Virus record (IMG/VR): IMGVR_UViG_3300020109_000014
Reading direction: 5' to 3' (one strand)
Source of the DNA: an uncultured virus (IMG/VR IMGVR_UViG_3300020109_000014)
Lineage: Duplodnaviria; Heunggongvirae; Uroviricota; Caudoviricetes
DNA: 64,000 bases
Below the pieces are notes generated by a model. That model ran no database searches. It was not told the origin of the DNA and saw only the letters and a program-made list of their open reading frames with translations. The position numbers were made by a program, and so were the translations under genes. This document shows, one piece after another, positions 1 to 58,884 of this stretch. The stretch's first letter is position 1; every line of letters begins with the position of its first letter.

Positions 1-436
1 CCATAGAACCCTTGTTCCAAACGATCACACCTTGCTGTAACCATTTAGGAAGATTCTCGTATGCTGTCTGTAATCTTCCTAATAGGTCACGAGCAGTGGA
101 TGCTTTGTTGGCAAGAATACCAATGTTGGAACTATCATTAAACAAAGCATAGTGAAGTAGATAAGAAACCACAACAGTAGATTTGCCTGTCTGACGTGGC
201 AACTTAGCAATATTGAATCTATTGTTATGAAATTTATCAACTAATTCTTTTTGGAATTCATACATCCTAAAAGGAATAAGACCTTCATCAACAGAAACAA
301 TTTTGACATAATTTAAAGCAAAGTAAACGGGGTCTTCTTTACATTTAATATATTCTTCAATTTGTTCCCTAGTAAAATCAATAGGAACATTTGCTTTTTT
401 TAATAAAGGATTACCAAGATATACACCATCAGCCAT
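1..436 (-). CDS. gp17: Terminase large subunit gp17, 5' part (runs off the window start)
   Basis: Not in the ORF track. Manual translation from ATG at 436 gives MADGVYLGNPLLKKANVPIDF...RFNIAKLPRQTGKSTVVVSYLLHYALFN..., with the T4 gp17 Walker A (PRQxGKS). It lies downstream of gp16. Confidence 0.95.
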   Translation of the reverse strand, partial: MADGVYLGNPLLKKANVPIDFTREQIEEYIKCKEDPVYFALNYVKIVSVDEGLIPFRMYEFQKELVDKFHNNRFNIAKLPRQTGKSTVVVSYLLHYALFNDSSNIGILANKASTARDLLGRLQTAYENLPKWLQQGVIVWNKGSM

Positions 437-659
437 AATTTTGTTTATAAACGGACATTAAATTTAAATCTTCCATTCTCTTCTTCCACCCATCACCTTC
501 TGTAGTTCCTTTACATGGATTGATGCAAGTATTATCACCGAATTTATCACAAACCAAAGAAGCTAATGTTGTATCATCTCCTTTTTTGTTAGTTCCACTC
601 CAGTAATGCTGCCCATTAATCCAGTTCGCCCCGCATTTAGGACAGGTTTTAATATTCAT
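429..659 (-). CDS. Hypothetical Cys-rich cyanophage protein (CxxC), about 76 aa
   Basis: ORF track 429..719. The more plausible start is MNIKTCPKCG at 659. The stop overlaps the gp17 start. Confidence 0.6.
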   Translation of the reverse strand: MNIKTCPKCGANWINGQHYWSGTNKKGDDTTLASLVCDKFGDNTCINPCKGTTEGDGWKKRMEDLNLMSVYKQNYG

Positions 660-1014: not shown

Positions 1015-1024
1015 TTTTTATTAT

Positions 1025-1031: not shown

Positions 1032-1444
1032 TCTTCTGAAATTTTCTTGCCCATTTCTTTGAGCATCTTCTGTAGATCAGCTGTAGAACCAAGAAACATA
1101 GTATTGTTTACAGTTGTTGGAGCAGAACCTTTTATTGGAGCATCTAGATCTTTCATCTTCTTCTGTAAATCTATAAGCTTATCGGTCATGTCTGAGACCT
1201 GCTTCATAGCGTTTACAGCGACTTCATACGCTCTAGGGTGTCCAGACTCCTGAGCAACCTCTAAGGCGCCTTGTACCGCCTCCTGACCTTTCTCTATGAG
1301 ATCGTATAACTGACCCCTGGTATATTCATAATCTTTTTCTGGGTCTTCTTGCTTCTTAGGAGCAACTGGTGTTATTTCAATATTCTCTGGTTTTACAACA
1401 TCAATGTCAAATATTTGTTCCATATTTTTTTCAAACTCATTCAT
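1028..1444 (-). CDS. gp16: Terminase small subunit gp16
   Basis: DYEYTRGQLYDLIEKGQEA...HPRAYEV...GSTADLQK motifs; located between gp15 and gp17. Confidence 0.92.
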   Translation of the reverse strand: MNEFEKNMEQIFDIDVVKPENIEITPVAPKKQEDPEKDYEYTRGQLYDLIEKGQEAVQGALEVAQESGHPRAYEVAVNAMKQVSDMTDKLIDLQKKMKDLDAPIKGSAPTTVNNTMFLGSTADLQKMLKEMGKKISEE

Positions 1445-1448
1445 AAGA

Positions 1449-3995: not shown

Positions 3996-4003
3996 TATTT
4001 ATA
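3996..4003 (-). promoter_or_regulatory. T4-like late promoter TATAAATA upstream of gp13
   Basis: Exact T4 late consensus on the minus strand, 21 nt upstream of the ATG. Confidence 0.75.
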
Positions 4004-4442
4004 CCCTATCAAAAATGAAGGGTCCGCCAGTAGACTTGCCAAAAACTAATCTACCGTCAGCATCATAACCAGTATCTTTTGCTATGTACTGAGAATCATT
4101 AAATTTAACCTCACTGTTAATTCTAATTCCTTTTACGATACATTCCCCACAAGGCATGGCAATCCAAAATCCGTTCACATAATTAAATTGATAATTACAA
4201 TTCAATTCCCAATCCATATTATATGATTGAAATATTACTTCTTTTTCTGTAATATATTCATACTTATGATACTCTTGTCTATAAGGTCTACCCCTAGGAT
4301 ATTGATACTCATACCAATTTTGAGACATCAATTTATTATCGCCCAAATCTTTATACACAATACGGATCATTGCGAATTGTGATGGATAAGAAAACGCTTG
4401 TTTTTTATTTAAATATTGCCCTATAATAGATTCAAATTTCAT
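3999..4442 (-). CDS. cpeT: CpeT/CpcT-like T-type phycobiliprotein (bilin) lyase, phage-encoded
   Basis: GQYLNKKQAFSYPSQFAMIRI, WYEY..RPYRQ and DTGYDADGRLVFG..GPFIF match the T-lyase pattern (N..QA...P..F..I; PYRQ; D.G.D..G..V.G...GPF.F). It has the compact size and position next to gp13 typical of cyanomyovirus cpeT. RBS GAGGTG. Confidence 0.85.
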   Translation of the reverse strand: MKFESIIGQYLNKKQAFSYPSQFAMIRIVYKDLGDNKLMSQNWYEYQYPRGRPYRQEYHKYEYITEKEVIFQSYNMDWELNCNYQFNYVNGFWIAMPCGECIVKGIRINSEVKFNDSQYIAKDTGYDADGRLVFGKSTGGPFIFDRV

Positions 4443-4744: not shown

Positions 4745-4752
4745 TATTTATG
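4745..4752 (-). promoter_or_regulatory. Late promoter CATAAATA
   Basis: Overlaps the stop codon of the giant fibre gene. Confidence 0.55.
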
Positions 4753-7700
4753 GTTTGTCTTTGAGAGATTTAATTTCCTCTTGTAGCATATTTATTTGAA
4801 TTTGTTGTTCTTTGATTGCCTCAATGAGGACTGATACCATATTAGCATAAGCAACAGTCTTCATGCCATCTTCATTTTCAAATATAACTTCTGGAATAAC
4901 TTCCTCAACCTCTTGAGCAATTAAACCAATCTGGTGAGTATCAATATCAATTCGATCAAATTCTACACCTCTAAGATTTAGAACTTTATCTAAAGCATTT
5001 TCAATTGTTTTGATATTTTTCTTAAGTCTGATATCAGAACTTGCTGTTACTGTACCAGTTACAGTAACATTACCTGCGGAATTGATTTCTAACCTATTTG
5101 AAGTAGAACCACCGCCATACAATCTAGTAAGACCACTATTAGTATTACCATAACCAATATACATACCGTCATTGGCGCTGGTGCTATTGTTGTTTCTAAT
5201 AATACGAGCATTTAAAACAGTGTCAGTATTATTAGGCATACCAGCAGTGGTATTGACTGCTGTGGTAGCATTACCTACGGTTAATGTTGATGGGTTAACC
5301 CACGTTGGGGCACTAGCGCCAGTGTTAACAACTAATACCTGACCAGCAGATCCAATGTTTAATTTAACAGTTGTTGAGGCAGCAGATTGATATAAGAGAT
5401 CGCCAGCAACACCAGCAGTAATATTTGCAGCAGAGGCAACAGAAAGACCAGAAATATTAGACCAAGCAGGCGCCGCTGCTCCACCAATCAGAACCTGTGT
5501 ATTCTGTCCTGCCGCTAAGAATGCCGTTGCTCCAGGACCGCTTTGGTAATGTATTTGTCCAGCACCACCACCTGATACGTTAGCAGCAGCTCCAACAGTA
5601 AGAGTTGATTGGGCAACCCAACCAGGAACAGCAAGGCTTCCACCAGACCTTAATATTTGACCAGCCTCGCCTGTTGGTAATTTAGATGTAGTATTAACGG
5701 CAGACTGATACAAAATTTTATTGGTATCGGCGGCGATGCTGGTAATGTTGCCAGCAACAATTGAAGATTGATTAATATAAACTGGTAATTTGGAGGAACT
5801 TAGAGCAAGAACTTGTCCAGCAGATGCTGCTGCCACAGGAAGTTTTGCTGTTGCTCCAGTACCAGATTGATATAGAATTTCTCCAGCAGCACCACCACTA
5901 ATATTACCAGCAGTAATTGTATTTGGATTAATCCAAGCAGGTGGGTTATTTGCTCCTTGAGTTGATAAAATAAATCCAGAATTTGATACTGGCAATTTAG
6001 CTGTTGCTCCAGCAGCAGATTGATATAGAACTTCACCAATAGCTCCACCATCCACATTACCAGCAGTGATTGTATTTTGTGCTACCCAAGAAGGAGCCGT
6101 AGCACCAGCATTTACTACCAATACCTGGCCAGCAGATCCAATATTTAATTTAACAGTTGTTCCAACGTTAGATTGATATAAGAGATCGCCACGTACACCA
6201 GCATGTATGTTACCAGCAGTAATAGAAGATTGGTTGATCCAAAGAGGAGCTGCTCCAGTTCCTTGTGAACTTAATACTTGACCAGCTGTTCCTTGTGAGA
6301 ACTTGGACGTAACATTTACGGCAGATTGATATAGTAAAGATCCAGTATCACCATCAACGCTAGCAATATTACCAGCAGTAATATTGCTTTGTGCTGTCCA
6401 AGAAGGAGCCGTAGCATTGGTATTTACTACCAATACCTGACCAGCAGATCCAATGGTTAACTTAGAAGTTGTTGAGGCAGCAGATTGATATAAGAGATCG
6501 CCAGCAACACCAGCATGTATGTTGCCAGCAGTGATTGTATTTTGTGCCACCCATGAAGGATTTTGATTAGTTCCATTAGTCTGGAGTAAAGATCCAGCAG
6601 CACCTACAGGTAATTTTGCTGTTGCTCCAACGCCAGATTGATATAATACTTGCCCTCGAACTCCACCATTAATATTACCAGCAGTAATGTTAATTTGTGC
6701 TGTCCAAATAGGAGCCGAAGACCCACCTACTACCAATACCTGACCAGAAGTACCAATTCCTAAAACTGTTGTTGTATTTGTTCCTGATTGATAAAGTAGA
6801 GATCCAGCAGCACCACCAGCAGAAACGTTAGTAGCACTTGTAGCATTTCCACTTAAAGCTCCATTGAATGTTTTAGCTGTTAATCTTCCTACAGATGGAT
6901 TAAAGAATAATCCAAGTGAAGAGTCTGAGCTATATTTAATATCTGCTGGGGTTTCTGTAGATGAGAAGAATCCAACCACCAAATTAGTTGATGTAGCAGC
7001 ATCTGATGTAACAGCAATTTTAGTTGCTGATCCAATATTAATCGCTGATGGTGAGGTCCATTTAGGAGCAGTGGCGTCAGAATTTACTGTAAGAATTTGG
7101 TTGGTAGTACCAATATTTAATTTTGCTAGTGTTGGGGTTGTTGCTGAAGCATACAACATATCACCAATAGCATAAGCATTGATTCCTGTACCACCTCTAA
7201 CAGCAGCTAAAGTACCAGCATTAGCATTGTTGACGTTTGTATAATAACTACCATCCTGATCATCTAGTAAATCAACATTTAAATTTGTTACTTTAGTCGT
7301 AGAAGTTACAGATAATGGAGAAGTACCTGTAGGCGCTGGAAGAATTAATTGACCAGATTTATCAAATGAGAATGTACGAAGAGTTGATACAGTTTGATCT
7401 GCTGCTTTAGAAGCATCGTCTCCAAATACAAAATCTAGTCTACCACCAGCACCAGCACTTACACCATTGGCATCAGAATGCCTAATTAAGAAACCAAAGT
7501 TTGAAGTTTGATATTTAGTGCCATCATTAATGTATAAACCACCAGCAATATGAGATCCAGAAGTTCTGAGAATTGATTTATCTCTAGAGTTCCAATCTCT
7601 ATCATCTAAGAGATCGGCATCTAAACCAGAACCAGAACCATCATTATTTTCATTCCAAATTCTATAATCATTAGTACCAGAACTGAAGAATATTGAGCTA

Positions 7701-10700
7701 TTATTTTTAGCAAAGAATCTAATTGTTCTGTCGGCATCTACTTGTGCCCATGTTGTTAATGTATCAGCAGCACTTCCATCGCCAATACCAAAGTACAATG
7801 AAGTTCCATTATGACCTATTGCCCAAGATTTACCTACTCCAGCATTACCGCCAATACCAATAACAGAGAATCCTCCACCATCTGCTAAATTACCAGCAAT
7901 AACTTTGTTAGAATAAATATCAGGATCAATAATTGTGTTATCTGCTAATTGAGCAGCGTCATTAATAGTTACGAAACTTGATAATGTTGTAACTCCAGTT
8001 ACGGTTAATGATCCAGCCGTTGCTGTATTCTCATCAGATCTCATTACCTGAGATTTTGTAATACCTTGTAAGAAGTTGGCATTCAGACCTGAAATATCAG
8101 TGTCATTTCCAGAGTGCCAGACAGTATTGCTGTTATAAGTAAATCCATTACCAGTAATATTTAAAGCACCATTACCACTATTAGTAGTACCCCCAGTGAC
8201 TTGGAATCTTACATCATATTCATTGAATGCTCCGCTTGAATGGAAATCAATGATAGCACCACTAGAAGGAGTGTTGTTGGCAACATTGTTACCATCATTT
8301 CTTCCTAAGATTAATCTAGCTCCAGTACCATCATCTTGTAATGTAGAAGAAGTATAGGTGGCAAATGGCGAAAGTCTTAGTGAATTCCATGTTTGTTCAA
8401 AACCAGTAAATCCAATTTTTGTAGCAGAACCAATAGAACCACTATCTAATTGAATTGTAAGAATTACGTAATTAAGTTCTGTTTTAACCTCTTCTACAGG
8501 GAATTTTTGCTCTATCAGCTTTAATGTTGCTTGACCAACTACTTGGAGAATATCATTGTATAATGAGTAAGTGGTGCCAATTACGAAGTTAAGATCTCCG
8601 TTATTTAATCTTCCAGAGAAATAAATTTCATAGTGTGCTTTGTCAATATATCTAACAGTAGTTAATGATTCTAAGAATTTCTTAGAAGACATTATTGGTT
8701 GTAATCTGGAATCATTGATGCTGCCACCATCAAGGTTTAGAGCATTTGTATAGAACTTGGCATCTTTTGCTTGTAGTTTATCAGCATCTAATCCAGATCC
8801 AAATCCATCATTACCAGAAGTCCATACCTTATACCAAGGTGAGAAAGCGTTTGTTGGATCAGTTGGGATAATGTTTCCTGTACCACGAATGTACATATTT
8901 GGAACAACATCATCAAGAGTTGTAGAAGAACTAGCACCACCACCACCTGTACCAACGTTAAGAGTACCATCAGTAAATGCTAACTGTTTTAAACCACCAT
9001 TACTAGCATCTGTACCAATACCAGATGGTCTAATAGTCAGTAATGTTACACGCTCTCCTTCATCTTCTAAGGTTCTATCAACTAGAGAAGATCTAAAATT
9101 AGAAGATATTCTTGCTGCCAAACTTAAACCTGATCCGTAAGCAGAAGGAGCTGGTACAGCGTTGATGGAATCTGTTATAGTTTCTACTCTAGTTGTAGTA
9201 CCAGATTTGCCAGTAATATCAATTGAATATGTACCAGATAATCTATCTGGTCTTAGAGTGCCAGATTCTAAGTTTGAAGCATCAAGATAGAATACACCTT
9301 GCTTACCATCAAGTAAGTCAGAATCTAATCCTGATTCTGGACCAGTTTTTAAAGTAACTGCTCCATCAGGACCATATGTATATTGTGATTTCTGGAATCT
9401 AGCAACACCAACTGTACCAAAAGGATCTAATGATGTTGTTTGATTTGTAACTCTCTTGACATCCATTTCGATGCTAGAGAAGTATGTTTGCTGAGTTGAA
9501 GCAAGAACAGTAAGTTTAGCGCCAGTTCCTAATCCTAAAGCACCTGGAATGGGATCGATATCAAAATCTTCTGTATATCCATTACCACCATCAGTTATAA
9601 GGGCATTAGTAATTAAACCATTTTGAACAGTAAATGTTGCTTTAGCACCAGAACCTGTATTTGAACCGAATAGTTCTACGTTATTGAACGTACCAGTTGA
9701 GAATGGAACTCCAAACTGAACTTCTTTGTTTACTATATTAGCAGTATTATTTGCTGATAAAGTAATTGTTCCCGAAGTTCCACTATCAAGCTGAATGCTG
9801 GTGATAATAGCATTGGTAGCAACTCCCTCAGCAGTTACCTTTTGCCCAATAACAGCTTTGGTAACGTCAACTACGCTAATTGTATTTTCTCCTATATTAC
9901 CATTGGTAATAGTTGAAGTGTAATAGTTACCTGGACTTTCTATAAAGATGCCAGCAGCATATGCTCCTTTGGTAAAGTTAGAATCAAATTGTAATGCAGT
10001 TTCTGTTCTTATAATGGTAAATACTGTACCAACAGGGACATCATTAATTAGCGTAGAACTTAATACAACTCTAGTATTACCACCAACAGTTAATATTTCA
10101 AGAACAATTGTATCTGCTGACACACCATTACCAATAACTCTCTGTCCAGTTTGTATTAAACTCGTTAATGGAATAGTGATGTAGTTTACTGGCGGGATTA
10201 AAGGATCACCACTTCCAGGTGAGAATAGAACAGTTTTTACTAAGAATTTAGATTCTGGTAATTTAACACCTTGTACAACTGGTTTAAATGATTGATCGCC
10301 CCTTAAGAATGTAAACGAGTTTGCTGAACCAGTATTAGGTAATGCTAATCTAGAAGTAGAAATAGTACCAGTAGTAATAGAAGCAGCATCAATAGAAGCT
10401 GATGTCAGTGGAACCCAGTTAAATTCATTTGATCCTGATGTATTAACAACTCTAGATATGTTTACTGTGACAGGAGTAGCATTATGACTATTAATATTGT
10501 CAACATCAGTAAATTTAACAGAATTTTCAATATTAATAGAAACTCTACTTTCAACAAAAGATGTTAATTGAGCTCTTTCCCCGACGTAAACATAGAAACA
10601 TGTACCACCATCTGCTGGTTGAGGAATGCCAGATTGACCAGAGAAAGCAGATGTTCCTGAAGTTCCCTCTGTTGTTACTTTATAAAGATTTGTTCCAACA

Positions 10701-13700
10701 AAAATTAAATCATCGACAAGATATGTTTGATTTGCTGACCAAGCAACTTCTCCTATAGAAATAGATACAGTTGGTGTGGTATCATATCCACTTCCTTTAT
10801 TGGTAATTTCAACTGCCGAAATTCTACTACCAACAACAACAGGAGTTGCTGTTGCTTGAACACCATCACCTTGATTCGGAGCAGAGATAACTACAGATGG
10901 AGTTTCATTTAAATAAACATTACCACCGCCAGAAACTGAAATTGAGAATACAGTACCATATAAAGTACTAGTTACTGAACCAATAGCACCTGTTGCCGAA
11001 CCAATAACTAATGATCCAGTTGTAAATGTTGTGGATATATTTGGAGGATAAGCTAAAAATTGAGTATCTACATCATTATTTAAAATATATGAAACTGTAC
11101 CAGTAGCGATTTGAACTTCTGTATTGCCAGATCCAGCGTCAGTAATTGTTATAGGAATTTCGTCAATAACATTTTCTGGAGATGCTGCTAACTGAACAAA
11201 ATTATTTGGAAGAACAATAAGATAATAAGACTCTCCAGCAACTATAGGACCATCAGTTGTTTGAATTGGGTTAACTGGACTTGATACAATTGAAAGAATT
11301 TGACCGCTAGAGAATCCAGTTTTAGGAGTAAAGATTTTATTATTTGCTACATCAACATCAGAAGCACTGATAGTATCATTCAATCTTGTAACTTGTACAG
11401 CAATATCACCAGAATTTAATCCTTCTAAAGCAAGTCTTTGGGAAGTGTTTTCTACTGTATAAACTTTAAATGGTCTGATAGGTGGAATTTGATCTAGATT
11501 AATCTTACCATCATTTCCTAGTTCTACAAGAGCATTTGGAACTGGATTTGTTGAATATGGTTTACCAAAATATGGACCTAGGTTATTAGTTACAAAGTCT
11601 CTAACAGCTTTCTGTGTTGGTAGTTTTTGGTTTGTAGCAGCAGCACCACCTAATGTTGGCGAAGCATCAAATCCAGTAACAACAAGATCACCACCACGAA
11701 TACGTAAGAATTCAATTTCCGAGATAGATACTTGACCAGTAAAGTAAATGTTACCAGTTCTGTTTTCCATCTTCACGGTACGACCTACCTTGAAGTCACC
11801 TGCCTCATCAGTACCAGAAGCATATACTCTACCGTAACTTTGTGATACTTGCTCGTTATCTTCAATCTTCTGTCCACCATTTTCTGGTAGAGCATAGTAA
11901 TTAATACCAGAACCAATATATTCAAACGAATGACCAGAAGAGTTAATGATAGATGGTCTGAATAATCTAATTGTTTTATTAATTAATTCTGAAGTGTTGA
12001 GATTGACTATCTGACCAGATTCTTTATTTTTTATTAAAAGAGCATCATTTAACTCAATTCTAGAACTAACTTCTCCAGTTCCACCAACTGTTGTTTGAGA
12101 TACTACAGTTATAAAAAATTCAATGTCTGATACGACATTTTCATATCCATCAATTTTAACAACAAAGTTTTCTTGTGGTCTTCTTCCTAATCCATCTACA
12201 CGGAATATTGTTTTACCAGCGCCCGTAACACCAATTTCGCTAATGGTAGCAATATCAAATACATATGGTTCTTCTCTATATCCAGTAGCACGTAGAGCAT
12301 ATGTACCAAAGTTTGAAGCAGAGTTGGTAACAGAAGCATATCCACCAGATTCGGCAAGAATACCATCTTGGCAGAAGATACAGAATACAGATACCAACTG
12401 AGTGTAACCATCATTCTTAACTAAGTATCCAGTGCCTCCCTGTGAAATAATAGTGAAGGCGTTAGCAACCATCGATTTACCTTGTGGGGCAAGCTTTGAT
12501 GATCCATCTTCTTTCAAACCTGGACGAGGAACGTTAATTTGTTTAATCTTAGAACCATCAACTTCACAACCACCACCACCTAAGAATGAAATAATCGAAC
12601 AGTTTTGAATATATGGAGAAGTTTCAATAATGTCATTGGCATTAATCATTCTACCACGAATTACTGGTCTGTTACCAGCATCAATCATTGTACCAGAACC
12701 TTGTACAATTGTTGGGTTGTAAAGAGTTCCTCGATTTCTAACAACTAAAGCAACGTTATCATTAGTAGCCTCTGGTAAATCTCCACCATTTAGCACAGCA
12801 TCTAAGATGGCAAATAGATTAATTAATGTAGTAATAATATTGGCACATTCTGGATAGGATGTGTCTTCTGTAATGAATTCATCCGTAGACGCTCTTTGTA
12901 AACCTTGGAAATAATCACCAGCAAAAATACCAGGGAAGTTTGCTGGGAAGTATTTACGAGGATTGTATTGAGTGCCATAAGTAGCTGCTGGTAATGGAGC
13001 TCCAGATTGAGCTAAAGTACTATCAAGAATACTCCATAAAGTTTCTATGGTGCTTTGTACTGAAGCACATGACGTTGGATCTGTATTGTCATTAGTAAGA
13101 GGATCTGGGAGAATAGATAAATCAGTAAATGGATCTTCGTCTGTATATTCTCCTGGATCAGGTAAATTATTTGTAACTGCTAATTTAACTAGATTTTTAG
13201 CGTACTCATAAGCATATCTACTCTTTTGTAGTTCATCCTGAATAAAAGTAACAGCGCCAGTATTTGTTAAATAAGATTGAGTTGCTTGAATTGTAGCAGA
13301 GTTGCCTCCAGTAATTAAATCTTTAATCCAAGCGGTCATAATTAATTGAGTGTCTCTCAAACATTTTGCTTCATTTGGAATTGTTACAAGAGGATACTCT
13401 TCGTTAGCAGCACCTACTGCTTCCTCAGCGATATATTTAAAGTTTCTAGCAATAAGTCTAGCAGCATCAATTTTAGTTCCTCCAGAATCATTTGTGATGA
13501 TGTCAACAAACTGCTGGAATAAAGATTCTATTGATGCTTCCACGAAAGCACACTGTGGATATCCAGCAGGATCTGGTAATATATCATTGTTTACGACATA
13601 ATCTGCTGTGGCAAATTGTTTAGTATACGTTGTAGTAGCACTAGTCTTCCAATTTCTCATAGCAAGGACTGCTAGATCTTTTACCTTTTCAAAAGTTTCT

Positions 13701-16700
13701 ATACTTTGAACTAGTTGATTACCAATATAGTCAAGGTGACCAGAAGCATTTCTATATAATTCGGCAGCTTTAATAGTTTCTGAGTTGCCGCCATATCTTA
13801 AATCAAAAATGAGAGCATCTAATACATAACCAATATCTCTTTGGCATGTAGCATTATCATACTGAGAAACAAGATTAGCTAATGAAGTTGAAGGATTAAG
13901 TGTGGTTAGATATGGATAGATATTTTCAATGTATCCAACTGCTTCCTGCTTAATAAATGTCTTATTAGCAGTGATGTTATTAGCAGCATCAAACCATGGA
14001 GCACCTACTTCACTAAATGAGAAGAATAGTTTTGCTGTTGTTGTTGAAGCATTTGCTGGGAAAGCAGCAGCTGTCAATGACTTAGAGTTACCTAAAGTTA
14101 TTGTATTGCTTCCTCTATTAATTCCAATTACATAAGCATATGAATCTGGGGTAAGATCAGTGTATCTAAACTCATTAGCAGATACTCTCATTCCAAGAAC
14201 AACGCCATTTGTGTTAGGAACTGTTACTACATTATTTCCGCTTACTGTCGTACAGTCTCTAATTTCAAAATTCCAATTTCTTGTGGCAGCAATTGCCATA
14301 TGCTTGGCATAATCGTAAATGTGTAAAGTCTTACCTAATTGATCGCCAACAAAACCTACATCTAAAGTTGCTCCAGTTAAATAAGAATCTGCTGAACGAA
14401 CAATACCAACAGTACCACCAAGAATTATATCACGTTGTACGGAGCGAAGGATAATTCTTAAATCTCTCTTACATTTAGTAATGTTTGGAATTGAAACACC
14501 AGGGAAAGAAACTTCTCCTGATGCTAATGCTTCGTTAATAATAAAGTTTTCATTAATAGCAATTTGATTAGCTGTATCTAGATTTGAATTTTCAGCATCA
14601 CCAGTTAAAATATTAATGATTAAATCAAATCTATTTGTAATAGCAGTGGCAACATTCTGGCAATAAGGAGTTTCAGTATCAATAATTAAGAACTCATCTC
14701 TTACATAATCAAGATCTGTATACTCCTTCTGATAATATTGTTTTCCTGGGAATTCAATCCAATTTCTCATAGCAAGGATACATAGATCTCTTGCTTTTCT
14801 GAAAGCGGCAACAGATTGAATTAGTTGATTATCGATTAATTTGATGTTACCGTTTTGCTCCTTGTATAAATTGGCATAGTTAATACTATTTGCGTTGCTA
14901 TCATTTAAAGTTATATCATTAATGACAGCATCAATAAGAAGCTTAATATCTCTCTTACACTTAATTTCGTTAAATGAATATGTTCCTCTATTTACAGTTA
15001 TTCCAGATAAAGAATCTAAATCACCATCATTAATAGTTGTAGTAATAATAGAAACTAAAGTAGTAATTCCTGAAGCAACATCAGAGCAGACAAATTTATC
15101 AAAGTTTGTTAATCTTTCTGGATCAGCAGTAATTGATAAATCACGATAGTTCAATTGGTTTCTTATGGCAAGAATCATGAGATCTCTTGCTTTATTAAAA
15201 GCAAAAATAGATGCTGCTTCTTCATCAACCAGACCATTTGAAATTGGTTGCCCTTCTTGGAAATAAGATCTAGCAGCAGTTACTGATCTCCAGTTACTAC
15301 CGTCAGCAACGTCTTTTGCTACAGCATCAACAATGATACCAATGTCTCTACGACATTTTGTTTCACCAATTCCAAACACTCCTTGTGTTTCTGGGAAAGC
15401 ATCTAATCCAGTTAAAGATCCAGCAGTAATGACATCAGTAATAATCTTACTTAACGATGCGATTCCTGCTTGAACATCAACACATGCTGCAGCAGTTCCT
15501 GAAGGCAGATTTGGGATATTGCCACCACTTCCGTTATATTGGGCTGGTCCTGCAGTAATAGTTAAATCCTTAATTGTTAATTGATTAGTTACTGCTTTCC
15601 TCATCATATCACGAGCCATGTTGAATGCTGTGATAGATTGAGTTTCTTCGTTTACTAATCCATTTGAAAGAGGACTTGAAACATTTGTGAAATATTGATT
15701 TACAAATTCTCTTGAATATTTGTTACCTTTAGTAAATACATCTAAAGAAACTGCTTCTACAAACTTCTTAACATCACGCTTACACTTAATTTCTCCAACT
15801 AAAACATCGTAAGTAGCAGCAGCAAGGAAAGAACTTTTGGTTGTTCCTAAGTTTCCAGCAGTAATTCTGGTTGTTACAAGTGTCGTTAGAGTTGTAATTG
15901 CTGTTTGAACATCAGCACACGAAGAAGGATTGGCATTGCTTCCTGTTACAGGATCTGCTGTAATTGTGAGGTCTTTGTAATAAAGTTGATTGGTGATCGC
16001 TTGATTAATTACATCTCTTGCTTTGTTAAAAGCAACTACAGATTGTGCTTCCTCATTTTGTAATCCATTACTAATCCAAGAAGAACCATCGGGAGTGAAA
16101 TAACGTGATAAGAATGTTCTCGTATTGAAATCGGTTAATTGACGTAAATCAGCTTCAATAGCAATAACAAATTGCCCAATATCTCTCTTACACTTTGTTT
16201 CTCCCTTGAGTGTAACTGGTTCTACTTCTGCTGGAAGACCAGTTAAATTACCTGCGGTAATTCTTGCTGTAATCAATGAAGATAAAGTATCAATAGTAGA
16301 TCTTACGTTAGTACAGGAGTTAGGATTTGTATTTGATACAGCTCCAGATCCAGGTGCTGGGTCTGGAGTAATTGTAAGATCTTTAGCGAACAACTGGTTA
16401 GTAATCGCATTCTTCATCATGTCACGAGCCATGTTAAAAGCAACTACAGATTGAGCTGTTTCGTCTACAAGACCATTGGAAATAGGAATACCATTATTAA
16501 AATATTGTAGTACAAATTTACGTGAATATTTGTTTGATTTTAAAGTTAAATCTAGAGATACAGAATCAACAAAGTATGCTAAATCTCTCTTACACTTTGC
16601 TTCCCCAGCAGGAATCGTTCCTGTTGTTTCAGATGGTAAACCAATTATATTACCAGCAGTAATTCTATCTGTGACAATAAGTGCTAAGCTAGTAATAGCT

Positions 16701-19700
16701 GCTTGAACGTTAGCACAGGAGTCGGGATTTGTATTCGATACAGTTCCAGATCCAGGTGTTGGATCTGCGGTAATAGTAAGATCTTTAACTGTTAACTGGT
16801 TAGCAACAGCCCTATTCATCTCGTCTCTTGCTTTATTAAAAGCAACATTTGATTCCGCTTCTTCTCCTAGAAGACCATTGGAAATAGGAATACCATTATT
16901 AAAATATTGTAGTACAAATTTACGAGTATATGTATTACCACCACCATTAGAAATATCCAAAGATAAAGCATCGACGAAAATACCAATATCTCTCTGGCAT
17001 TTTTGTGGATTTGGATTTACAAATTCTGGATTGAATATTAAAATAGCAGCATAAGCATTTGCTATAATTTCATCTCGATTTAATTGAATTAAACGATAAG
17101 CATCTTTAAATCTAGATGTAGGAGTTGTTTGAGCATCTCCAGGATAATAGAAATCTGGGAATTGTATAGCAATTTCAGCAGCAGCACGGTCAATAATTTG
17201 CTGCCTATTCTGCTGAATTAAACGATACGAATCTCTAAATCTTGAAGAAGATGTAGTTTGAGGATCGCCAGGATAATAGAAATCTGGATACTCCACAGCA
17301 ATCTGAGCAGCAGCACGATCAATAATTTCTTGCTTGTTATTATAAATTAAATCCGCCGAATCTTCGTAACGGTTATTGTTGCCATCATTTTCTTTTACTA
17401 GATTATTGATGTTTAATGATGTTAGTACGTCAGTTACAACAGCAACTAATGATGTGATAGCAGATTGAACATCAGCACAAGCGCCAACATTATCATTTGG
17501 AATGTTTCCACCACCTCCACCATAAGTAGCAGCACCAGGAGTGATGGTTAAATCTTTAACTGTTAATTGATTAGCAATAGCTTGCTTCATCAAATCTCTA
17601 GCAGCATTGAATGCTGTTATTGACTGAGGAACTTCTCCTTCCAAACCATCTGGAATAAATGTGTTGCCATTGAAATATGTTAGAACAAACTTTCTGGCAT
17701 AGGTGTTGCCACCAACAAATACATCAAGTGATACGTAATCAACTAACAAACCAATGTCACGCTTACACTTAGATTCTAGATCAGTTGGAGCTGGGGATGG
17801 AAGACCATTTGCTTCCATAGTAGCATAAGCAGTATCAATAATTTCCTGTTTGTTTAATTGGATTAATCGATAAGCATCTTTAAATCTTGATCTCTTTGTA
17901 GTTTGAGCATCGGCAGGGAAATAAAAATCTGGATGTTGTACAGCAACTTCTGCTGAAGAACGATCAACAATTTCTTTGATATTTTGAGTAATTAAACGGT
18001 ATCCATCAGCAAATCTACTGAATTCGTCAGTAACTGAATTTCCAGGGAAAACGAAGTCTGGAAATTCTACAGCAATCTGAGCAAGTGCTTTGTCAGTAAT
18101 TTCGTTTTTGTTTTTGAGAATAAGGTTAGAAGCGTCCTTATATCTCATCGACTCATCAAGATATACATCAGGATGAATAGTAACACTATCCATCTCACTT
18201 TCTAATGATTTACTTAGATATAAAATTTTATTTTCTACATCAATAGAAGTAATGTATGTATTATCTTGAATAGCGTCACCGCTAGTTACTAATTGCCCTA
18301 CCTTTACTTTTGCAGTATTAGTTATTTGAATAAAAGATGGATAAGCATCAGCGTTTGAAGTATCAATAACTGTTTTGGTAAAAGTTGGTAATGGATAAGC
18401 AAATCCATCATATGTCTCTTTTAACCAACCATTAACTTCCTCAGCAATAAAATCTTTATTAAATTCTATCTGATTTGTAGCGTCAAAGTAACGATCATCC
18501 GTATTGTTTACTACAATATCATCAATTAAAGTAAATAAGTTTGTTAATGTAACAGCAACGTTAGTACATTCTGGAAATTCTGGATAGTTGGTAGTTCTTG
18601 GAACTAAATCATCTGTCCAAATTGGTGTAAATGATGTTTCACCTTCACTAAGTTTTAAATTAATATTTCTTGTTTTAAAGCCTGTTATTTCACCATCAGC
18701 AAAAGTGTGATCTGCTCCAGAAAGACCTGTATTAAATTTCCAGATTCTTATTTGAGTTGGAGATACAACTTCTTTAATGAAGTAATCTGTTTCTACTTGT
18801 TGTTCTAGATTATTATAAGAATATAATCTCATTTTGGGAACAAGACCAATTGTTCCTGCTGCTGAAACAACTTCAACAATATCACTATCTTTTTTAAACT
18901 TCAGACTAATTTTTGTTTGCCAATTTCTCATGGCAAGAATAGCATAATCTCTTGCTAATTGGAAAGCAAAACGAGATTGTCTATGCTGGTTATCAATATA
19001 TTCAACTGATTGAGTAGAATTATTTCTATATGATTTTGCCGCTTCGATTGAAGTAGCGTTGCCACCATATGGGAGATCGGCAATAACAGCATTTAAAATA
19101 TGTTTAAGATCTCTCTTACAAAGATTTTCTCCATCTGAAGCACCATCGTCAGAACTAACTGGTGGTAATCCAGTCAAATTGCCAGCACTAATAGCACTAG
19201 TTAAAATGGTTGTTAAAGTAGTAATAGCGGTTTTAACGTTAGCACAATTATTTTCCCCAACAGTTAAGTATGTTGTTGGATCATGAGTTATTGAAAGATC
19301 TCTATATGCTTTTAACGGCGAATAAGTTGGAGTTATAGGCAATGAATTGTTAACAGCTAATTTTGCATATTCAGCAGCTTTGGTGAAAACAGCAATAGAT
19401 TGAGGTTCAACACCAACAAGACCATTAGGAATTGGCACTCCAGTAATGGCATTAAAATAAGATCTGGTTACAACAATTGTACTCTTATTTGATCCGTCAT
19501 ATAAATCATTTGCCAGACCTCTTAAAAAGATCTTGACATCTCTACGGCATTTACTTTTTAATGCTAAGTTTGCTGCTCCCCAAGTAGCAAAGTTTGATTC
19601 ATTCCACAACCATCCAATAGCTTCATCGGCAATAAAATCTAAATTTTTGTAGATTAAATTTCTAGCATCTTTAAATCTTAATCTACTAGCATTTGTACCA

Positions 19701-21862
19701 GGATAGACAAAATCTGGATAACGAGAACTAATTGCTCCAGTAATTTCTTCAGCGATAAAATCTCTATTATTTCTAATAAATGTTACAGCATCTATAAATC
19801 TATATGATGTAAATGTAGAATCAGTAAATCCATATGGAGAGTTTAATAGCGAAATCTCGACATACTTTGTTTTTGCTTTTGCTTTACACTGTCCAATTGG
19901 TGGTAAATATACTGAGGTGTAACTTGGTTGAATTTGTTTCTTAACGACAATTCTTCTAGAAAAACCGTCAGCATCATATAAAACTTGATCAACTCTTTGA
20001 AAACCAAAGAATGAATTTAAAGCAACTGGGGCATTATTTGGTTTTGATATAAAAACAATATCGAATTCTTTAAATTCATGAAGACCAGCAAATTTAAAAA
20101 TTATACCACCACTACCAGGAGTTAATTGACCATTATCACCTGGCGTTGGGTGAGTAGACCATTTACTAGCATCAATTTCTTCTACAATGTATTCTCTTAA
20201 TTCTGTCTCGCCATATTTTACAACTTCACCTTCTGCTCTAGTTGATTTAAATAATGCTACGTTAGCTAGATAAGTAACAGAATTTATTACGTATGAAATA
20301 ACTTCATCATCAGCAAAAGACTGTGATGGAGAATTATCATTTACTGTAATATTTAAAGATGCTTCTCTTCTATCACCCAAATAGATATATGCAGATGATC
20401 CGTTTACAGCATTTTTTGGTGTAGCTAATACACCACTATAAGCAATAGTTCCACTACTTCCTGAGGTGGTTACTTTATAAATTGAATTGCTTACTCTTAC
20501 AATATCCCCAACTAAATATTCTTGCTCAGCTTCCCACACATAATCAGGAGCAGGAGTAGCAGAAATAATAGACGTTAAAGTTGCTGAACACGACGTTTGT
20601 TGCCCAACAATATTAGTTCCTGCTGTAATTAAAGCATTTAATTTAGCAACGTCACCAGTATGTTCTTTAATGTTAAGAATGGCACTTTTTTGCCCGAACA
20701 TTTTGTGACCGATTGGGAACCTTCTTCTGAAAGATTCTGTCCCATCAATTCTAGTATCATTTCCACCAATCTCATCATCAAAGTAAAATCTTTGCTTATC
20801 ATCAAATACAAAAGCAAAGTTATGAGTATATACTGGGTTACCTTCCGAATCCAAAGCATCACGGAAGGTAAGACCATTCATATAGTTTTGGTTGGACGCC
20901 TTGAACATATGGCGCCCTGGATTTACTGGTCTAACGATTACTAAACGTAAGTTATCACCAATAACCGAACACAATGGTGGAATTGAAATTGGGTTATCTT
21001 CGTAATATTCGCCACCAGCAACAATTAAAGTTTCTCTACTTGGAGTAGCAGCTGCTAATTGAGCAGCTTTTTTGATTGTCCTAACTGGTTTGGCAGGAGA
21101 TCTACCATTATTTGTATCACTACCAATTTCAGAAGAAACATAGATACGACCACCTACGTCATTTGTGGCAACATTGTAAACAAATTCTGTGGTGGCAATT
21201 CTTCTACTTTGATCTTGTAGAGGAGGAGTAGCAGTTAACTCTGGATAAACAGTTTGACCGTAAAAAGGTAGATTCGCATTTGTTAAATTTGTGTATGAAC
21301 CTAGACGTGGAGCTCTAAGTAAAATACCAGGAGTTACAAAATTTTGTACGTTTAAATTAGTAACCGTAGCACTATCGCTAACAATAGAAGCAGATGTTCT
21401 AATAGCACCAAGAACATCTAATTCAAAGTCAATAGTGTCTAATTCACACGTACCCTGAGCGGTAACTCCACCTAAAGGAGCTTCTGCAAATACTATTGTT
21501 GGTGGTTGAGAATATCCTCTACCAGGATCTGTAATAATAACTGAAATAATACTTCCAGTATCTGGATCTCTTACAGCACTTAGAACAGCTACTTTTGAAT
21601 TTCGGCTAATAATATCTGGTTGTGATACTGTAATAGTTGGAGTAATTAAATATCCAACTCCAGGATTAGTAATATTTACTTTTGCTATCCTTTCGCCAGT
21701 CCTATTAAGACCTACTCTAGAAGCACCATTTTTTCTAACTACTCTAATAATTTCCTTACTTTCAAGTCCTTCTCCCGAACTTATAGTTACGAAAGATTTA
21801 CCGTTTATATTAAGCTCAGTTGATTCAATAATTTGCTTGTTAGGATTGAACTTTAAGCTCAT
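4748..21862 (-). CDS. Giant tail-fibre-like virion protein (5704 aa): split beta-helix, 12 phycobiliprotein-like domains, fibre repeats, C-terminal S74 intramolecular chaperone
   Basis: C-terminal SDIRLKKNIKTIENALDKVLNLRGVEF...GLIAQEVEEVIPE followed by a coiled coil (S74). LDADLLD fibre motifs, 12 CxRD motifs, late promoter upstream. Confidence 0.88.
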   Translation of the reverse strand: MSLKFNPNKQIIESTELNINGKSFVTISSGEGLESKEIIRVVRKNGASRVGLNRTGERIAKVNITNPGVGYLITPTITVSQPDIISRNSKVAVLSAVRDPDTGSIISVIITDPGRGYSQPPTIVFAEAPLGGVTAQGTCELDTIDFELDVLGAIRTSASIVSDSATVTNLNVQNFVTPGILLRAPRLGSYTNLTNANLPFYGQTVYPELTATPPLQDQSRRIATTEFVYNVATNDVGGRIYVSSEIGSDTNNGRSPAKPVRTIKKAAQLAAATPSRETLIVAGGEYYEDNPISIPPLCSVIGDNLRLVIVRPVNPGRHMFKASNQNYMNGLTFRDALDSEGNPVYTHNFAFVFDDKQRFYFDDEIGGNDTRIDGTESFRRRFPIGHKMFGQKSAILNIKEHTGDVAKLNALITAGTNIVGQQTSCSATLTSIISATPAPDYVWEAEQEYLVGDIVRVSNSIYKVTTSGSSGTIAYSGVLATPKNAVNGSSAYIYLGDRREASLNITVNDNSPSQSFADDEVISYVINSVTYLANVALFKSTRAEGEVVKYGETELREYIVEEIDASKWSTHPTPGDNGQLTPGSGGIIFKFAGLHEFKEFDIVFISKPNNAPVALNSFFGFQRVDQVLYDADGFSRRIVVKKQIQPSYTSVYLPPIGQCKAKAKTKYVEISLLNSPYGFTDSTFTSYRFIDAVTFIRNNRDFIAEEITGAISSRYPDFVYPGTNASRLRFKDARNLIYKNLDFIADEAIGWLWNESNFATWGAANLALKSKCRRDVKIFLRGLANDLYDGSNKSTIVVTRSYFNAITGVPIPNGLVGVEPQSIAVFTKAAEYAKLAVNNSLPITPTYSPLKAYRDLSITHDPTTYLTVGENNCANVKTAITTLTTILTSAISAGNLTGLPPVSSDDGASDGENLCKRDLKHILNAVIADLPYGGNATSIEAAKSYRNNSTQSVEYIDNQHRQSRFAFQLARDYAILAMRNWQTKISLKFKKDSDIVEVVSAAGTIGLVPKMRLYSYNNLEQQVETDYFIKEVVSPTQIRIWKFNTGLSGADHTFADGEITGFKTRNINLKLSEGETSFTPIWTDDLVPRTTNYPEFPECTNVAVTLTNLFTLIDDIVVNNTDDRYFDATNQIEFNKDFIAEEVNGWLKETYDGFAYPLPTFTKTVIDTSNADAYPSFIQITNTAKVKVGQLVTSGDAIQDNTYITSIDVENKILYLSKSLESEMDSVTIHPDVYLDESMRYKDASNLILKNKNEITDKALAQIAVEFPDFVFPGNSVTDEFSRFADGYRLITQNIKEIVDRSSAEVAVQHPDFYFPADAQTTKRSRFKDAYRLIQLNKQEIIDTAYATMEANGLPSPAPTDLESKCKRDIGLLVDYVSLDVFVGGNTYARKFVLTYFNGNTFIPDGLEGEVPQSITAFNAARDLMKQAIANQLTVKDLTITPGAATYGGGGGNIPNDNVGACADVQSAITSLVAVVTDVLTSLNINNLVKENDGNNNRYEDSADLIYNNKQEIIDRAAAQIAVEYPDFYYPGDPQTTSSSRFRDSYRLIQQNRQQIIDRAAAEIAIQFPDFYYPGDAQTTPTSRFKDAYRLIQLNRDEIIANAYAAILIFNPEFVNPNPQKCQRDIGIFVDALSLDISNGGGNTYTRKFVLQYFNNGIPISNGLLGEEAESNVAFNKARDEMNRAVANQLTVKDLTITADPTPGSGTVSNTNPDSCANVQAAITSLALIVTDRITAGNIIGLPSETTGTIPAGEAKCKRDLAYFVDSVSLDLTLKSNKYSRKFVLQYFNNGIPISNGLVDETAQSVVAFNMARDMMKNAITNQLFAKDLTITPDPAPGSGAVSNTNPNSCTNVRSTIDTLSSLITARITAGNLTGLPAEVEPVTLKGETKCKRDIGQFVIAIEADLRQLTDFNTRTFLSRYFTPDGSSWISNGLQNEEAQSVVAFNKARDVINQAITNQLYYKDLTITADPVTGSNANPSSCADVQTAITTLTTLVTTRITAGNLGTTKSSFLAAATYDVLVGEIKCKRDVKKFVEAVSLDVFTKGNKYSREFVNQYFTNVSSPLSNGLVNEETQSITAFNMARDMMRKAVTNQLTIKDLTITAGPAQYNGSGGNIPNLPSGTAAACVDVQAGIASLSKIITDVITAGSLTGLDAFPETQGVFGIGETKCRRDIGIIVDAVAKDVADGSNWRSVTAARSYFQEGQPISNGLVDEEAASIFAFNKARDLMILAIRNQLNYRDLSITADPERLTNFDKFVCSDVASGITTLVSIITTTINDGDLDSLSGITVNRGTYSFNEIKCKRDIKLLIDAVINDITLNDSNANSINYANLYKEQNGNIKLIDNQLIQSVAAFRKARDLCILAMRNWIEFPGKQYYQKEYTDLDYVRDEFLIIDTETPYCQNVATAITNRFDLIINILTGDAENSNLDTANQIAINENFIINEALASGEVSFPGVSIPNITKCKRDLRIILRSVQRDIILGGTVGIVRSADSYLTGATLDVGFVGDQLGKTLHIYDYAKHMAIAATRNWNFEIRDCTTVSGNNVVTVPNTNGVVLGMRVSANEFRYTDLTPDSYAYVIGINRGSNTITLGNSKSLTAAAFPANASTTTAKLFFSFSEVGAPWFDAANNITANKTFIKQEAVGYIENIYPYLTTLNPSTSLANLVSQYDNATCQRDIGYVLDALIFDLRYGGNSETIKAAELYRNASGHLDYIGNQLVQSIETFEKVKDLAVLAMRNWKTSATTTYTKQFATADYVVNNDILPDPAGYPQCAFVEASIESLFQQFVDIITNDSGGTKIDAARLIARNFKYIAEEAVGAANEEYPLVTIPNEAKCLRDTQLIMTAWIKDLITGGNSATIQATQSYLTNTGAVTFIQDELQKSRYAYEYAKNLVKLAVTNNLPDPGEYTDEDPFTDLSILPDPLTNDNTDPTSCASVQSTIETLWSILDSTLAQSGAPLPAATYGTQYNPRKYFPANFPGIFAGDYFQGLQRASTDEFITEDTSYPECANIITTLINLFAILDAVLNGGDLPEATNDNVALVVRNRGTLYNPTIVQGSGTMIDAGNRPVIRGRMINANDIIETSPYIQNCSIISFLGGGGCEVDGSKIKQINVPRPGLKEDGSSKLAPQGKSMVANAFTIISQGGTGYLVKNDGYTQLVSVFCIFCQDGILAESGGYASVTNSASNFGTYALRATGYREEPYVFDIATISEIGVTGAGKTIFRVDGLGRRPQENFVVKIDGYENVVSDIEFFITVVSQTTVGGTGEVSSRIELNDALLIKNKESGQIVNLNTSELINKTIRLFRPSIINSSGHSFEYIGSGINYYALPENGGQKIEDNEQVSQSYGRVYASGTDEAGDFKVGRTVKMENRTGNIYFTGQVSISEIEFLRIRGGDLVVTGFDASPTLGGAAATNQKLPTQKAVRDFVTNNLGPYFGKPYSTNPVPNALVELGNDGKINLDQIPPIRPFKVYTVENTSQRLALEGLNSGDIAVQVTRLNDTISASDVDVANNKIFTPKTGFSSGQILSIVSSPVNPIQTTDGPIVAGESYYLIVLPNNFVQLAASPENVIDEIPITITDAGSGNTEVQIATGTVSYILNNDVDTQFLAYPPNISTTFTTGSLVIGSATGAIGSVTSTLYGTVFSISVSGGGNVYLNETPSVVISAPNQGDGVQATATPVVVGSRISAVEITNKGSGYDTTPTVSISIGEVAWSANQTYLVDDLIFVGTNLYKVTTEGTSGTSAFSGQSGIPQPADGGTCFYVYVGERAQLTSFVESRVSINIENSVKFTDVDNINSHNATPVTVNISRVVNTSGSNEFNWVPLTSASIDAASITTGTISTSRLALPNTGSANSFTFLRGDQSFKPVVQGVKLPESKFLVKTVLFSPGSGDPLIPPVNYITIPLTSLIQTGQRVIGNGVSADTIVLEILTVGGNTRVVLSSTLINDVPVGTVFTIIRTETALQFDSNFTKGAYAAGIFIESPGNYYTSTITNGNIGENTISVVDVTKAVIGQKVTAEGVATNAIITSIQLDSGTSGTITLSANNTANIVNKEVQFGVPFSTGTFNNVELFGSNTGSGAKATFTVQNGLITNALITDGGNGYTEDFDIDPIPGALGLGTGAKLTVLASTQQTYFSSIEMDVKRVTNQTTSLDPFGTVGVARFQKSQYTYGPDGAVTLKTGPESGLDSDLLDGKQGVFYLDASNLESGTLRPDRLSGTYSIDITGKSGTTTRVETITDSINAVPAPSAYGSGLSLAARISSNFRSSLVDRTLEDEGERVTLLTIRPSGIGTDASNGGLKQLAFTDGTLNVGTGGGGASSSTTLDDVVPNMYIRGTGNIIPTDPTNAFSPWYKVWTSGNDGFGSGLDADKLQAKDAKFYTNALNLDGGSINDSRLQPIMSSKKFLESLTTVRYIDKAHYEIYFSGRLNNGDLNFVIGTTYSLYNDILQVVGQATLKLIEQKFPVEEVKTELNYVILTIQLDSGSIGSATKIGFTGFEQTWNSLRLSPFATYTSSTLQDDGTGARLILGRNDGNNVANNTPSSGAIIDFHSSGAFNEYDVRFQVTGGTTNSGNGALNITGNGFTYNSNTVWHSGNDTDISGLNANFLQGITKSQVMRSDENTATAGSLTVTGVTTLSSFVTINDAAQLADNTIIDPDIYSNKVIAGNLADGGGFSVIGIGGNAGVGKSWAIGHNGTSLYFGIGDGSAADTLTTWAQVDADRTIRFFAKNNSSIFFSSGTNDYRIWNENNDGSGSGLDADLLDDRDWNSRDKSILRTSGSHIAGGLYINDGTKYQTSNFGFLIRHSDANGVSAGAGGRLDFVFGDDASKAADQTVSTLRTFSFDKSGQLILPAPTGTSPLSVTSTTKVTNLNVDLLDDQDGSYYTNVNNANAGTLAAVRGGTGINAYAIGDMLYASATTPTLAKLNIGTTNQILTVNSDATAPKWTSPSAINIGSATKIAVTSDAATSTNLVVGFFSSTETPADIKYSSDSSLGLFFNPSVGRLTAKTFNGALSGNATSATNVSAGGAAGSLLYQSGTNTTTVLGIGTSGQVLVVGGSSAPIWTAQINITAGNINGGVRGQVLYQSGVGATAKLPVGAAGSLLQTNGTNQNPSWVAQNTITAGNIHAGVAGDLLYQSAASTTSKLTIGSAGQVLVVNTNATAPSWTAQSNITAGNIASVDGDTGSLLYQSAVNVTSKFSQGTAGQVLSSQGTGAAPLWINQSSITAGNIHAGVRGDLLYQSNVGTTVKLNIGSAGQVLVVNAGATAPSWVAQNTITAGNVDGGAIGEVLYQSAAGATAKLPVSNSGFILSTQGANNPPAWINPNTITAGNISGGAAGEILYQSGTGATAKLPVAAASAGQVLALSSSKLPVYINQSSIVAGNITSIAADTNKILYQSAVNTTSKLPTGEAGQILRSGGSLAVPGWVAQSTLTVGAAANVSGGGAGQIHYQSGPGATAFLAAGQNTQVLIGGAAAPAWSNISGLSVASAANITAGVAGDLLYQSAASTTVKLNIGSAGQVLVVNTGASAPTWVNPSTLTVGNATTAVNTTAGMPNNTDTVLNARIIRNNNSTSANDGMYIGYGNTNSGLTRLYGGGSTSNRLEINSAGNVTVTGTVTASSDIRLKKNIKTIENALDKVLNLRGVEFDRIDIDTHQIGLIAQEVEEVIPEVIFENEDGMKTVAYANMVSVLIEAIKEQQIQINMLQEEIKSLKDKP
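5270..6850 (-). repeat. Ten tandem ~52-aa fibre repeats (G.LLYQS....T.KL..G..GQ.L......P.W..Q..ITAGNI)
   Basis: Counted in the translation. About 49 nt are identical between copies at ~5370-5417 and ~6467-6515. Confidence 0.85.
12785..19810 (-). repeat. Array of 12 phycobiliprotein-like (globin-fold) domains within the giant fibre
   Basis: 12 N-halves (RF.DA..LI..N...I...A.......P), 12 K-C-x-R-D motifs (K replaced in two) and 12 second Cys motifs (C..V...I..L). Confidence 0.75.
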
Positions 21863-58880: not shown

Positions 58881-58884
58881 GGTT

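Follow-up and report, generated by a model that had tools for sequence, protein, structure and literature searches.

The stretch of DNA analysed here, hereafter the window, comprises 64,000 nucleotides of the 156,598-base record of an uncultured virus (IMG/VR IMGVR_UViG_3300020109_000014) and includes the structural region of a T4-like cyanophage. Its minus strand, on which the parts of the fibre gene and the adjacent cpeT gene given below are located, carries a giant tail-fibre-like gene (4748..21862), an open reading frame of 5,704 amino acids (aa). The encoded protein contains 12 phycobiliprotein-beta-like domains with 12 CxRD motifs, which are nested within one another, and it belongs among the larger arrays of its family.

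Layout of the domain array

Each domain was divided into three pieces, N (helices A-B), C (helices E-G, beginning at CxRD) and H (the last, cysteine-carrying helix), and profiles for these pieces were seeded from window segments and refined on relatives. Parsing of the fibre protein yielded NNCHCH / NNNNCHNNNCHCHCHCHCHCH / NCNCHNCHH, corresponding to 12 N, 12 C and 12 H. When parsed with a stack, the string is strictly nested to a depth of six with one branch at N5-C5th, which encloses both N6-C1st and the N7 triple. Strict nesting of 12 domains occurs in a fraction of 1.75e-5 of the orderings that keep N before C before H, a null that is generous since the adjacency of C and H is ancestral. 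The parse places nested insertions at two sites, the B-E loop and the G-H loop, as had been proposed in a first-pass annotation of the sequence, and the order of halves reported there for each of the following three blocks was also recovered.

In the upstream block (18506..19804), with the order N N C C, domain 1 (N 19715-19804, C 18917-19120, H 18506-18571) surrounds a single further domain, domain 2 (N 19613-19678, C 19340-19555, H 19178-19249). The central block, extending from 14600 to 18500, has the order N3 N4 N5 N6 C N7 N8 N9 C C C C C C with seven N-halves and seven C-halves. It opens with N3 (18410..18493, depth 1), whose partner, the 7th C, lies 1,150 residues away, and continues, after a small beta-rich module (18161..18373), with N4 (18059..18145, depth 2), the partner of the 6th C, and with N5 (17930..18019, depth 3), the partner of the 5th C and the branch point, whose B-E loop has two children; these three assignments derive from the parse and from the congruence analysis below. 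N6 with the 1st C and H constitutes, according to the parse, an uninterrupted domain (17417..17890) forming a side branch at depth 4. The other branch leads through N7 (17285..17374, depth 4) and N8 (17156..17245, depth 5), assigned with the help of structural models to the 4th and 3rd C, respectively, to the innermost uninterrupted domain at depth 6, formed by N9 with the 2nd C and H (16649..17116). The remaining C-halves, each followed by H, close the brackets in turn: the 3rd C (16247..16600) closes N8 and the 4th C (15851..16198) closes N7, both by parse and models, the 5th C (15416..15787) closes N5 by parse and congruence, and the 6th C (15023..15361) and the 7th C (14603..14962, of the AMRNW type) close N4 and N3, respectively, by parse and comparison with the relative P0006. 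The downstream block is domain 10 (12782..14578; N 14501-14578, C 14270-14479, H 12782-12850), in which a beta-module and the whole of domains 11 and 12 lie in the G-H loop, between the C-half and the last Cys helix. Small beta-rich modules (18161-18373, about 13997-14266 and about 18600-18900) occupy the same B-E and G-H loops as nested domains, and no Pfam match was found for the two that were scanned, which include the module between N3 and N4.

Two sequence motifs, A(M/T)RNW and NxxFIxxE, had been considered characteristic of the outermost C- and N-halves, respectively. They are not exclusive to these, AMRNW recurring in the inner C11 and NxxFIxxE in the inner N2 and N11, and they mark instead a subfamily. 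Since its sole members in the central block are N3 and the 7th C, the pairing of these two is still supported.

The whole array (residues about 358-3075) itself splits a DUF1565 domain, an outer bracket that the first-pass annotation lacked. The first half of the host domain lies at 20789..21160 (PF07602, E 6.8e-6) while the second half, closing the outermost bracket, was located at 12263..12637 by comparison of proteins carrying both halves. There are 72 such proteins; the halves are less than 150 aa apart in 34 of them and in the other 38 all phycobiliprotein-like domains lie between them. Insertion at this position supports the view that the stalk would be a loop projecting from the fibre. 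It had also been suggested that nesting would hide the homology from hidden Markov model searches, which is contradicted by the match of PF00502 to the whole fibre protein (9e-25; 87.9 bits, the cut-off being 22.2) and by its presence in 104 of the 120 listed homologues. An uninterrupted domain alone gives no PF00502 match, indicating that divergence weakens detection.

Pairing of the halves and proposed growth of the nest

The order of the halves alone fits both a nested and a first-in-first-out pairing of N with C, so that pairing has to be decided by other tests. One such test is congruence, measured as the correlation between the N-N and C-C similarity matrices under each pairing scheme. 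For the window, rho was 0.63 for nested pairing, 0.23 for first-in-first-out pairing and 0.26 +/- 0.12 for random order-compatible pairings, of which 1 in 500 was as high as the nested value. For relatives, the reference consisted of 162 uninterrupted domains of other proteins, and among 66 representatives nested pairing exceeded first-in-first-out pairing in all 53 for which the schemes differ, with a global correlation of 0.72 versus 0.41. Moreover, comparison with P0006, which has 11 domains, showed that the orthologues of N3 to N7 keep their partners under nesting only, and that an extra N and an extra C flank the innermost junction. The pairs proposed earlier (N6-C1st, N9-C2nd, N8-C3rd, N7-C4th, N5-C5th, N4-C6th, N3-C7th) are those of the stack parse and win the congruence test.

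Comparison of nesting depth across homologues, also suggested earlier, was based on 312 distinct array proteins (the 120 listed homologues and further loci), from which 38 cut near the array were dropped to leave 274. Matches to C were counted only if they held the CxRD start, a rule adopted because, in a first count with 177 of 217 proteins balanced, excess C tokens inspected in 15 proteins were mostly split matches. N and C are equal in number in 263 of the 274 and the brackets are valid in 262, encompassing 41 architectures that range from 2 to 15 domains and reach nesting depths of up to 10. In nine of the 12 invalid strings an N scoring below threshold occurs where it would be expected, and one is cut at the 5' end, while L020 and L135 have no explanation. 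The stricter rule that a domain equals N (domains) C (domains) H is obeyed by 184 of the 196 proteins with equal numbers of N, C and H, and the remaining 12 represent a single circularly permuted type. Median junction lengths are 8 aa for N-C of uninterrupted domains, 13 aa for N-N and 17 aa for H-C.

Some individual relatives show unusual arrangements. In the circularly permuted type (P0082, P0095, L083:4259 and kin), found in YHYH baseplate-wedge proteins, the last Cys helix precedes the first N and the last C carries no H. Ten consecutive N-halves, giving a depth of 10, occur in P0008, P0009, P0011-P0013, L201 and L209, and P0008 has a 409-aa insertion inside one C-half. In ACG-2014f (KJ019100.1:180784-190950) and S-CAM7 (KU686212.1:187655-198418), frames of about 4,000 aa contain N- and C-type matches separated by about 9 kb, which may in each case represent one domain enclosing some 3,000 residues.

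Structure prediction had been proposed as a check of the pairings. An AlphaFold2 model of N7 N8 N9 C2nd C3rd C4th (82 rows) has a predicted local distance difference test (pLDDT) value of 92.6 and a predicted template modelling score (pTM) of 0.92. The domains are all-helical in this model and in a second one lacking N7. N9-C2nd superimposes on residues 32-172 of phycocyanin beta with 2.0-2.1 Å over 132 residues (Z about 16), and all 50 rows listed by its fold search are phycobiliproteins. In a wide fold search with the triple model, one globin spans 45..379 (N8-C3rd, 127 residues) and globin 1ith_B spans 4..508 (N7-C4th, 131 residues), the spans denoting the first and last aligned residues only, rather than coordinates. 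Among the 50 rows for the N7-less model, five globins extend over N8-C3rd (110-142 residues, Z 6.1-7.8), no row spans N8-C4th, and nine rows match the 4th C alone as generic helical bundles (82-93 residues). Foldseek found nothing in the PDB at E <= 0.001 for the 520-aa model. Three of the seven pairs, N9-C2nd, N8-C3rd and N7-C4th, are thus seen as whole folds through their aligned ranges.

The fibre protein carries at its C-terminus a Peptidase_S74 intramolecular chaperone (4886..5038; PF13884, E 1.5e-15), a domain typical of trimeric fibres and spikes, and for this reason the fibre is probably a trimer. The same nested register could then arise by domain swapping, with the halves pairing between the chains of the trimer to yield a braided sleeve instead of three separate arms, and sequence congruence is blind to the difference between intra-chain and inter-chain pairing. 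Nevertheless, the single chain folds with the high pTM given above and the short junctions are as expected of in-chain loop insertion, and we consider swapping to be improbable. The halves do lie in tandem runs in which neighbours resemble each other, but an N-repeat solenoid, which the matched N and C counts exclude, or a first-in-first-out pairing, which loses in every informative representative, or a crosswise one, of which the models show no instance while showing nested pairs, is scarcely credible. The array has, we conclude with little doubt, a nested single-chain architecture of depth six with one fork at N5-C5th.

Depth would change when a matched N and C are gained or lost together around the innermost junction. 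A single tandem duplication cannot generate N N C C from N C. Growth through two separate duplications would pass through unbalanced intermediates, and such forms are rare or absent here. We prefer, as the most likely route, an out-of-register double crossover between phage genomes, with the left exchange in N and the right one in C, that would swap a whole inner shell in one step. N4-N6 resemble N7-N9 at 60-70% and the 3rd C resembles the 5th at 64%, which fits the copying of a whole triple into itself.

Equivalents of bilin-site residues and the cpeT gene

The profile positions align to Asp39, Cys82 and Cys153 of the beta chain 6jpr_B, with the Cys153 stretch below threshold, and the structural register (model residue 242 to chain residue 172) places model Cys223 on residue 153, in agreement with the profile. 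Each of the 12 window domains has equivalents of all three residues. Among relatives, the Asp39 equivalent is found in 95% of 361 N, the CxRD cysteine (Cys82/84) in 98% of 361 C and the last-helix cysteine (Cys153/155) in 97% of 345 H; within CxRD itself (n=361), C is kept in 98%, R in 91% and D in 98%. Both cysteines and both aspartates are thus retained at 95-98% while most positions drift. We take Asp39 to be the counter-ion of the Cys153 bilin, as in phycocyanin structures. Since the aspartate is provided by N and the cysteine by H, the Cys153 site would be formed only if the halves pair correctly.

The gene immediately downstream of the fibre gene encodes a cpeT/cpcT-type phycobilin lyase (3999..4442; PF06206, E 7.6e-9). 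The genome as a whole holds two array genes and two cpeT genes that are pairwise adjacent, one array gene being followed, and the other preceded, by cpeT. The second array gene (G000 C1:3677-14656; 3,660 aa) has the architecture NNNCHCHCH NCH NCH and its cpeT (G000 C1:2222-2671) lies about 1 kb upstream. In S-CAM3 and S-PM2, cpeT precedes an array gene by 1-2 kb, and more generally 31 of 75 loci have it within 2 kb upstream of the array; of the 30 loci with both flanks, 7 have it within 2 kb on one side or the other. Across 25 phage genomes, 12 of which had been selected because they carry one or other of these genes, 13 carry both array and cpeT, nine carry neither, three have the array only and none has cpeT only, so that 22 are concordant. 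An initially perfect co-occurrence (20 of 20 genomes, seven of them picked for one gene and the other 13 giving four with both and nine with neither) failed on five additional domain-picked genomes, three of which lack cpeT. P-SSM4 carries cpeT at NC_006884.2:16645-17070, contrary to a statement in PMC2984593.

A predicted complex of CpeT with an array domain scored 0.37, as against 0.00 for the best control, with a partner pLDDT of at least 79 and with the runs agreeing in at least 0% of contacts. Among pairs of known status, 116 of 157 solved ones and 2 of 215 mismatched ones attained the mark applied to such scores, but at values of 0.60 or below it was attained by only 18 of the 157 and by both of the mismatches. 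The prediction lends weak support to an interaction.

The fibre gene has as neighbours genes for gp25, gp6, a YHYH/baseplate-wedge protein, gp8, a DUF4815 protein, the neck, gp15 and the small terminase, and it occupies the slot of S-PM2p091, after gp8, a VrlC-like gene and a large and a small open reading frame, and before gp13-gp16. Searching with the 14600-18500 block by tblastn yielded 276 phage records, every one of which bears the name Synechococcus, Prochlorococcus, Cyanophage or marine virus, and most of the 40 matches listed are annotated as tail or fibre proteins. The phycobiliprotein-like domain also occurs in gp7 of P-HM1, P-HM2 and MED4-213. Three matches to cellular genomes (L220-L222), all on metagenome-assembled contigs filed under Flavobacteriales and Euryarchaeota, are probably mis-binned phage DNA. 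Elsewhere in the fibre, many tandem glycine-rich repeats (G.LLYQS..G.T..L..G; residues about 4900-5530, window about 5200-7200) precede the S74 chaperone, and the region 56000-60000 of the window, with a G+C content of 0.44-0.54 as against about 0.33 elsewhere, flipped skews and few long open reading frames, is possibly a tRNA or RNA-gene cluster.

Proposed function and related systems

The reading that we favour overall, and hold to be highly probable, is that of nested phycobiliprotein-like arms emerging from the DUF1565 domain of the fibre and putatively bearing bilins. Each stalk would be a single chain of seven phycobiliprotein-beta-like domains, with every child in the B-E loop of its parent, and the chain would run out along the N-halves and back along the C-halves, looping out of the DUF1565 domain. 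The domains may carry covalent bilins at the equivalents of Cys82 and Cys153, with the phage CpeT serving the Cys153 site, and conservation of these residues together with the neighbouring lyase gene makes this reasonably probable. Pigment on the virion is accordingly regarded as likely.

A number of results weigh against one or other part of this interpretation. The relatives are related proteins, and the grammar and congruence counts are therefore not independent samples. Structural support comes from single chains and covers three of the seven pairs, the outer ones through one to five globin rows with Z of 5.7-7.8, and pLDDT in the N7-less model was high for both the 3rd and the 4th C and singled out no orphan, so that this test did not discriminate. 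The best solved matches by sequence are alpha chains and, consequently, the term beta-like rests on the fold and the Cys153 equivalent. cpeT is not within 2 kb upstream in 44 of the 75 loci and lies on neither side in 23 of the 30 with both flanks; no cpeT match was found in S-SKS1, S-B43 and B23, which have the domain, nor any lyase among the four genes beside the B23 array, and S-CBWM1 and S-B68 have an S-type lyase and no domain match. One of the three complex runs scored 0.00. Finally, P-SSM2 adsorbs better in light without possessing the array (PMC6628666).

The alternative that survives best is that the proteins are nested, pigment-free scaffolds or mimics that bind the host, and that cpeT is near them through shared synteny and serves host phycobiliproteins. 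The CpeT of P-HM1 reportedly binds phycoerythrobilin without passing it on to the beta subunit of the host. A pigment-free role is consistent with the three phages that have the domain without cpeT, with the separation of the two genes at most loci and with the weak complex prediction, as well as with reviews that assign cpeT to assembly of the host antenna (PMC10452541). Host T-type lyases serve beta Cys153 (PMC10452541), lyases are treated as host-antenna genes (PMC10665884, PMC12801897) and the role of phage cpeT has been called unresolved (PMC3037559). Against this alternative stand the retention of both cysteines and both aspartates amid general drift, the placement of cpeT within one genome, on the upstream side of one array gene and on the downstream side of the other, and the lack of any cpeT without the domain in the 25 genomes. 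Moreover, P-HM1 has both genes and its Prochlorococcus host, like the hosts of P-HM2 and MED4-213, is without phycobilisomes (PMC2984593, PMC3037559). On balance, the pigment-free alternative is possible and less probable than bilin attachment.

If bilins are indeed carried, the array would be a pigmented arm on the virion, for which the leading use may be light-gated adsorption, followed by photoprotection. No adsorption in the dark occurs with P-HM1 and P-HM2, while P-SSM2 does adsorb, though less than in the light, and the light dependence has been ascribed to host receptors or tail fibres that are sensitive to light (10.1101/167650, PMC6628666); for S-PM2 it is independent of host photosynthesis (PMC6628666, citing Jia 2010). 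The domain is present in P-HM1 and P-HM2 and has no match in P-SSM2, a split like that of dark adsorption, in three phages of which two are close kin, and the correspondence is a lead only. Gating of adsorption by the array is, at best, a tentative proposal, and equally speculative is the broader picture in which virions would be pigmented by their own CpeT loading bilins on arms of fibres and baseplate wedges, with the arms acting as the light sensor of the particle. A comparable, modest likelihood attaches to bilin-carrying domains used for photoprotection or recognition of the host surface rather than for switching adsorption. The up to 24 sites per chain would suit a screen or an antenna better than a single switch, and the light-enhanced adsorption of P-SSM2 points in the same direction, whereas the split among the three myoviruses speaks for gating, with the same reservation about kinship.

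If true, a pigmented virion would explain both phage cpeT and light-dependent adsorption and, if confirmed, would be categorically new. Both questions become testable, the former because there is a candidate substrate with the right cysteine in the same genomes and the latter because there is a candidate chromoprotein in the fibre. For protein folding and repeat evolution, interest lies in a self-nested fold with a depth of 6 (10 in relatives), branches, two insertion sites and matched gain and loss; N3, whose partner is made only 1,150 residues later, represents an unusual folding case. The array could also serve as a single-chain scaffold on which bilins are arrayed.

No published description of phycobiliprotein domains, or of nesting, in phage fibres was found in a search that largely excluded subscription journals and supplements, where such annotation may exist. 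S-PM2p091 (T4-GC 830), the S-CAM3 short tail fibre and P-HM1 gp7 share family, gene slot and domains with the window fibre and are annotated merely as tail fibre, structural or baseplate proteins. The neighbouring phage gene matches the family of the CpcT/CpeT T-type lyases (PF06206), with the difference that the proposed phage substrate would be a structural protein.

Phycobiliprotein beta subunits (CpcB, CpeB; PF00502) share with the array domains the globin-type helices A-B-E-F-G-H and the equivalents of Asp39, CxRD and Cys153. The array domains differ in lacking the X-Y hairpin region, the alignments starting near chain residue 32 and the N-halves at helix A, although in some fold-search rows the helix B of the parent fills part of the place of the hairpin. 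They are also only 13-20% identical to the subunits, are repeated and split inside a virion protein, show no alpha partner (none was sought by folding) and bind bilin only putatively. ApcE (LCM) has a phycobiliprotein fold that likewise accommodates inserted sequence between helices B and E, where we take its PB-loop to be placed, and ApcE 4xxi aligns with the model (Z 14.7, 1.9 Å, 117 residues over chain 48-239), as fits a removed loop. It has one domain with one non-homologous loop and no self-nesting, whereas the array is self-nested.

The closest architecture is that of Si3 of the cyanobacterial RNA polymerase, an elongated arm in a loop of a host domain in which copies of a motif are assembled from distant parts of the chain, four of the eight (SBHM-2 to -5) being built in this way (PMC10895346). 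Si3 consists of all-beta sandwich-barrel hybrid motifs, in eight copies, within an enzyme (PMC10895346), and homology of the array to these motifs was not found, its domains being helical. The array differs further in its two insertion sites, its branching and, among relatives, its 2-15 copies and depths of up to 10.

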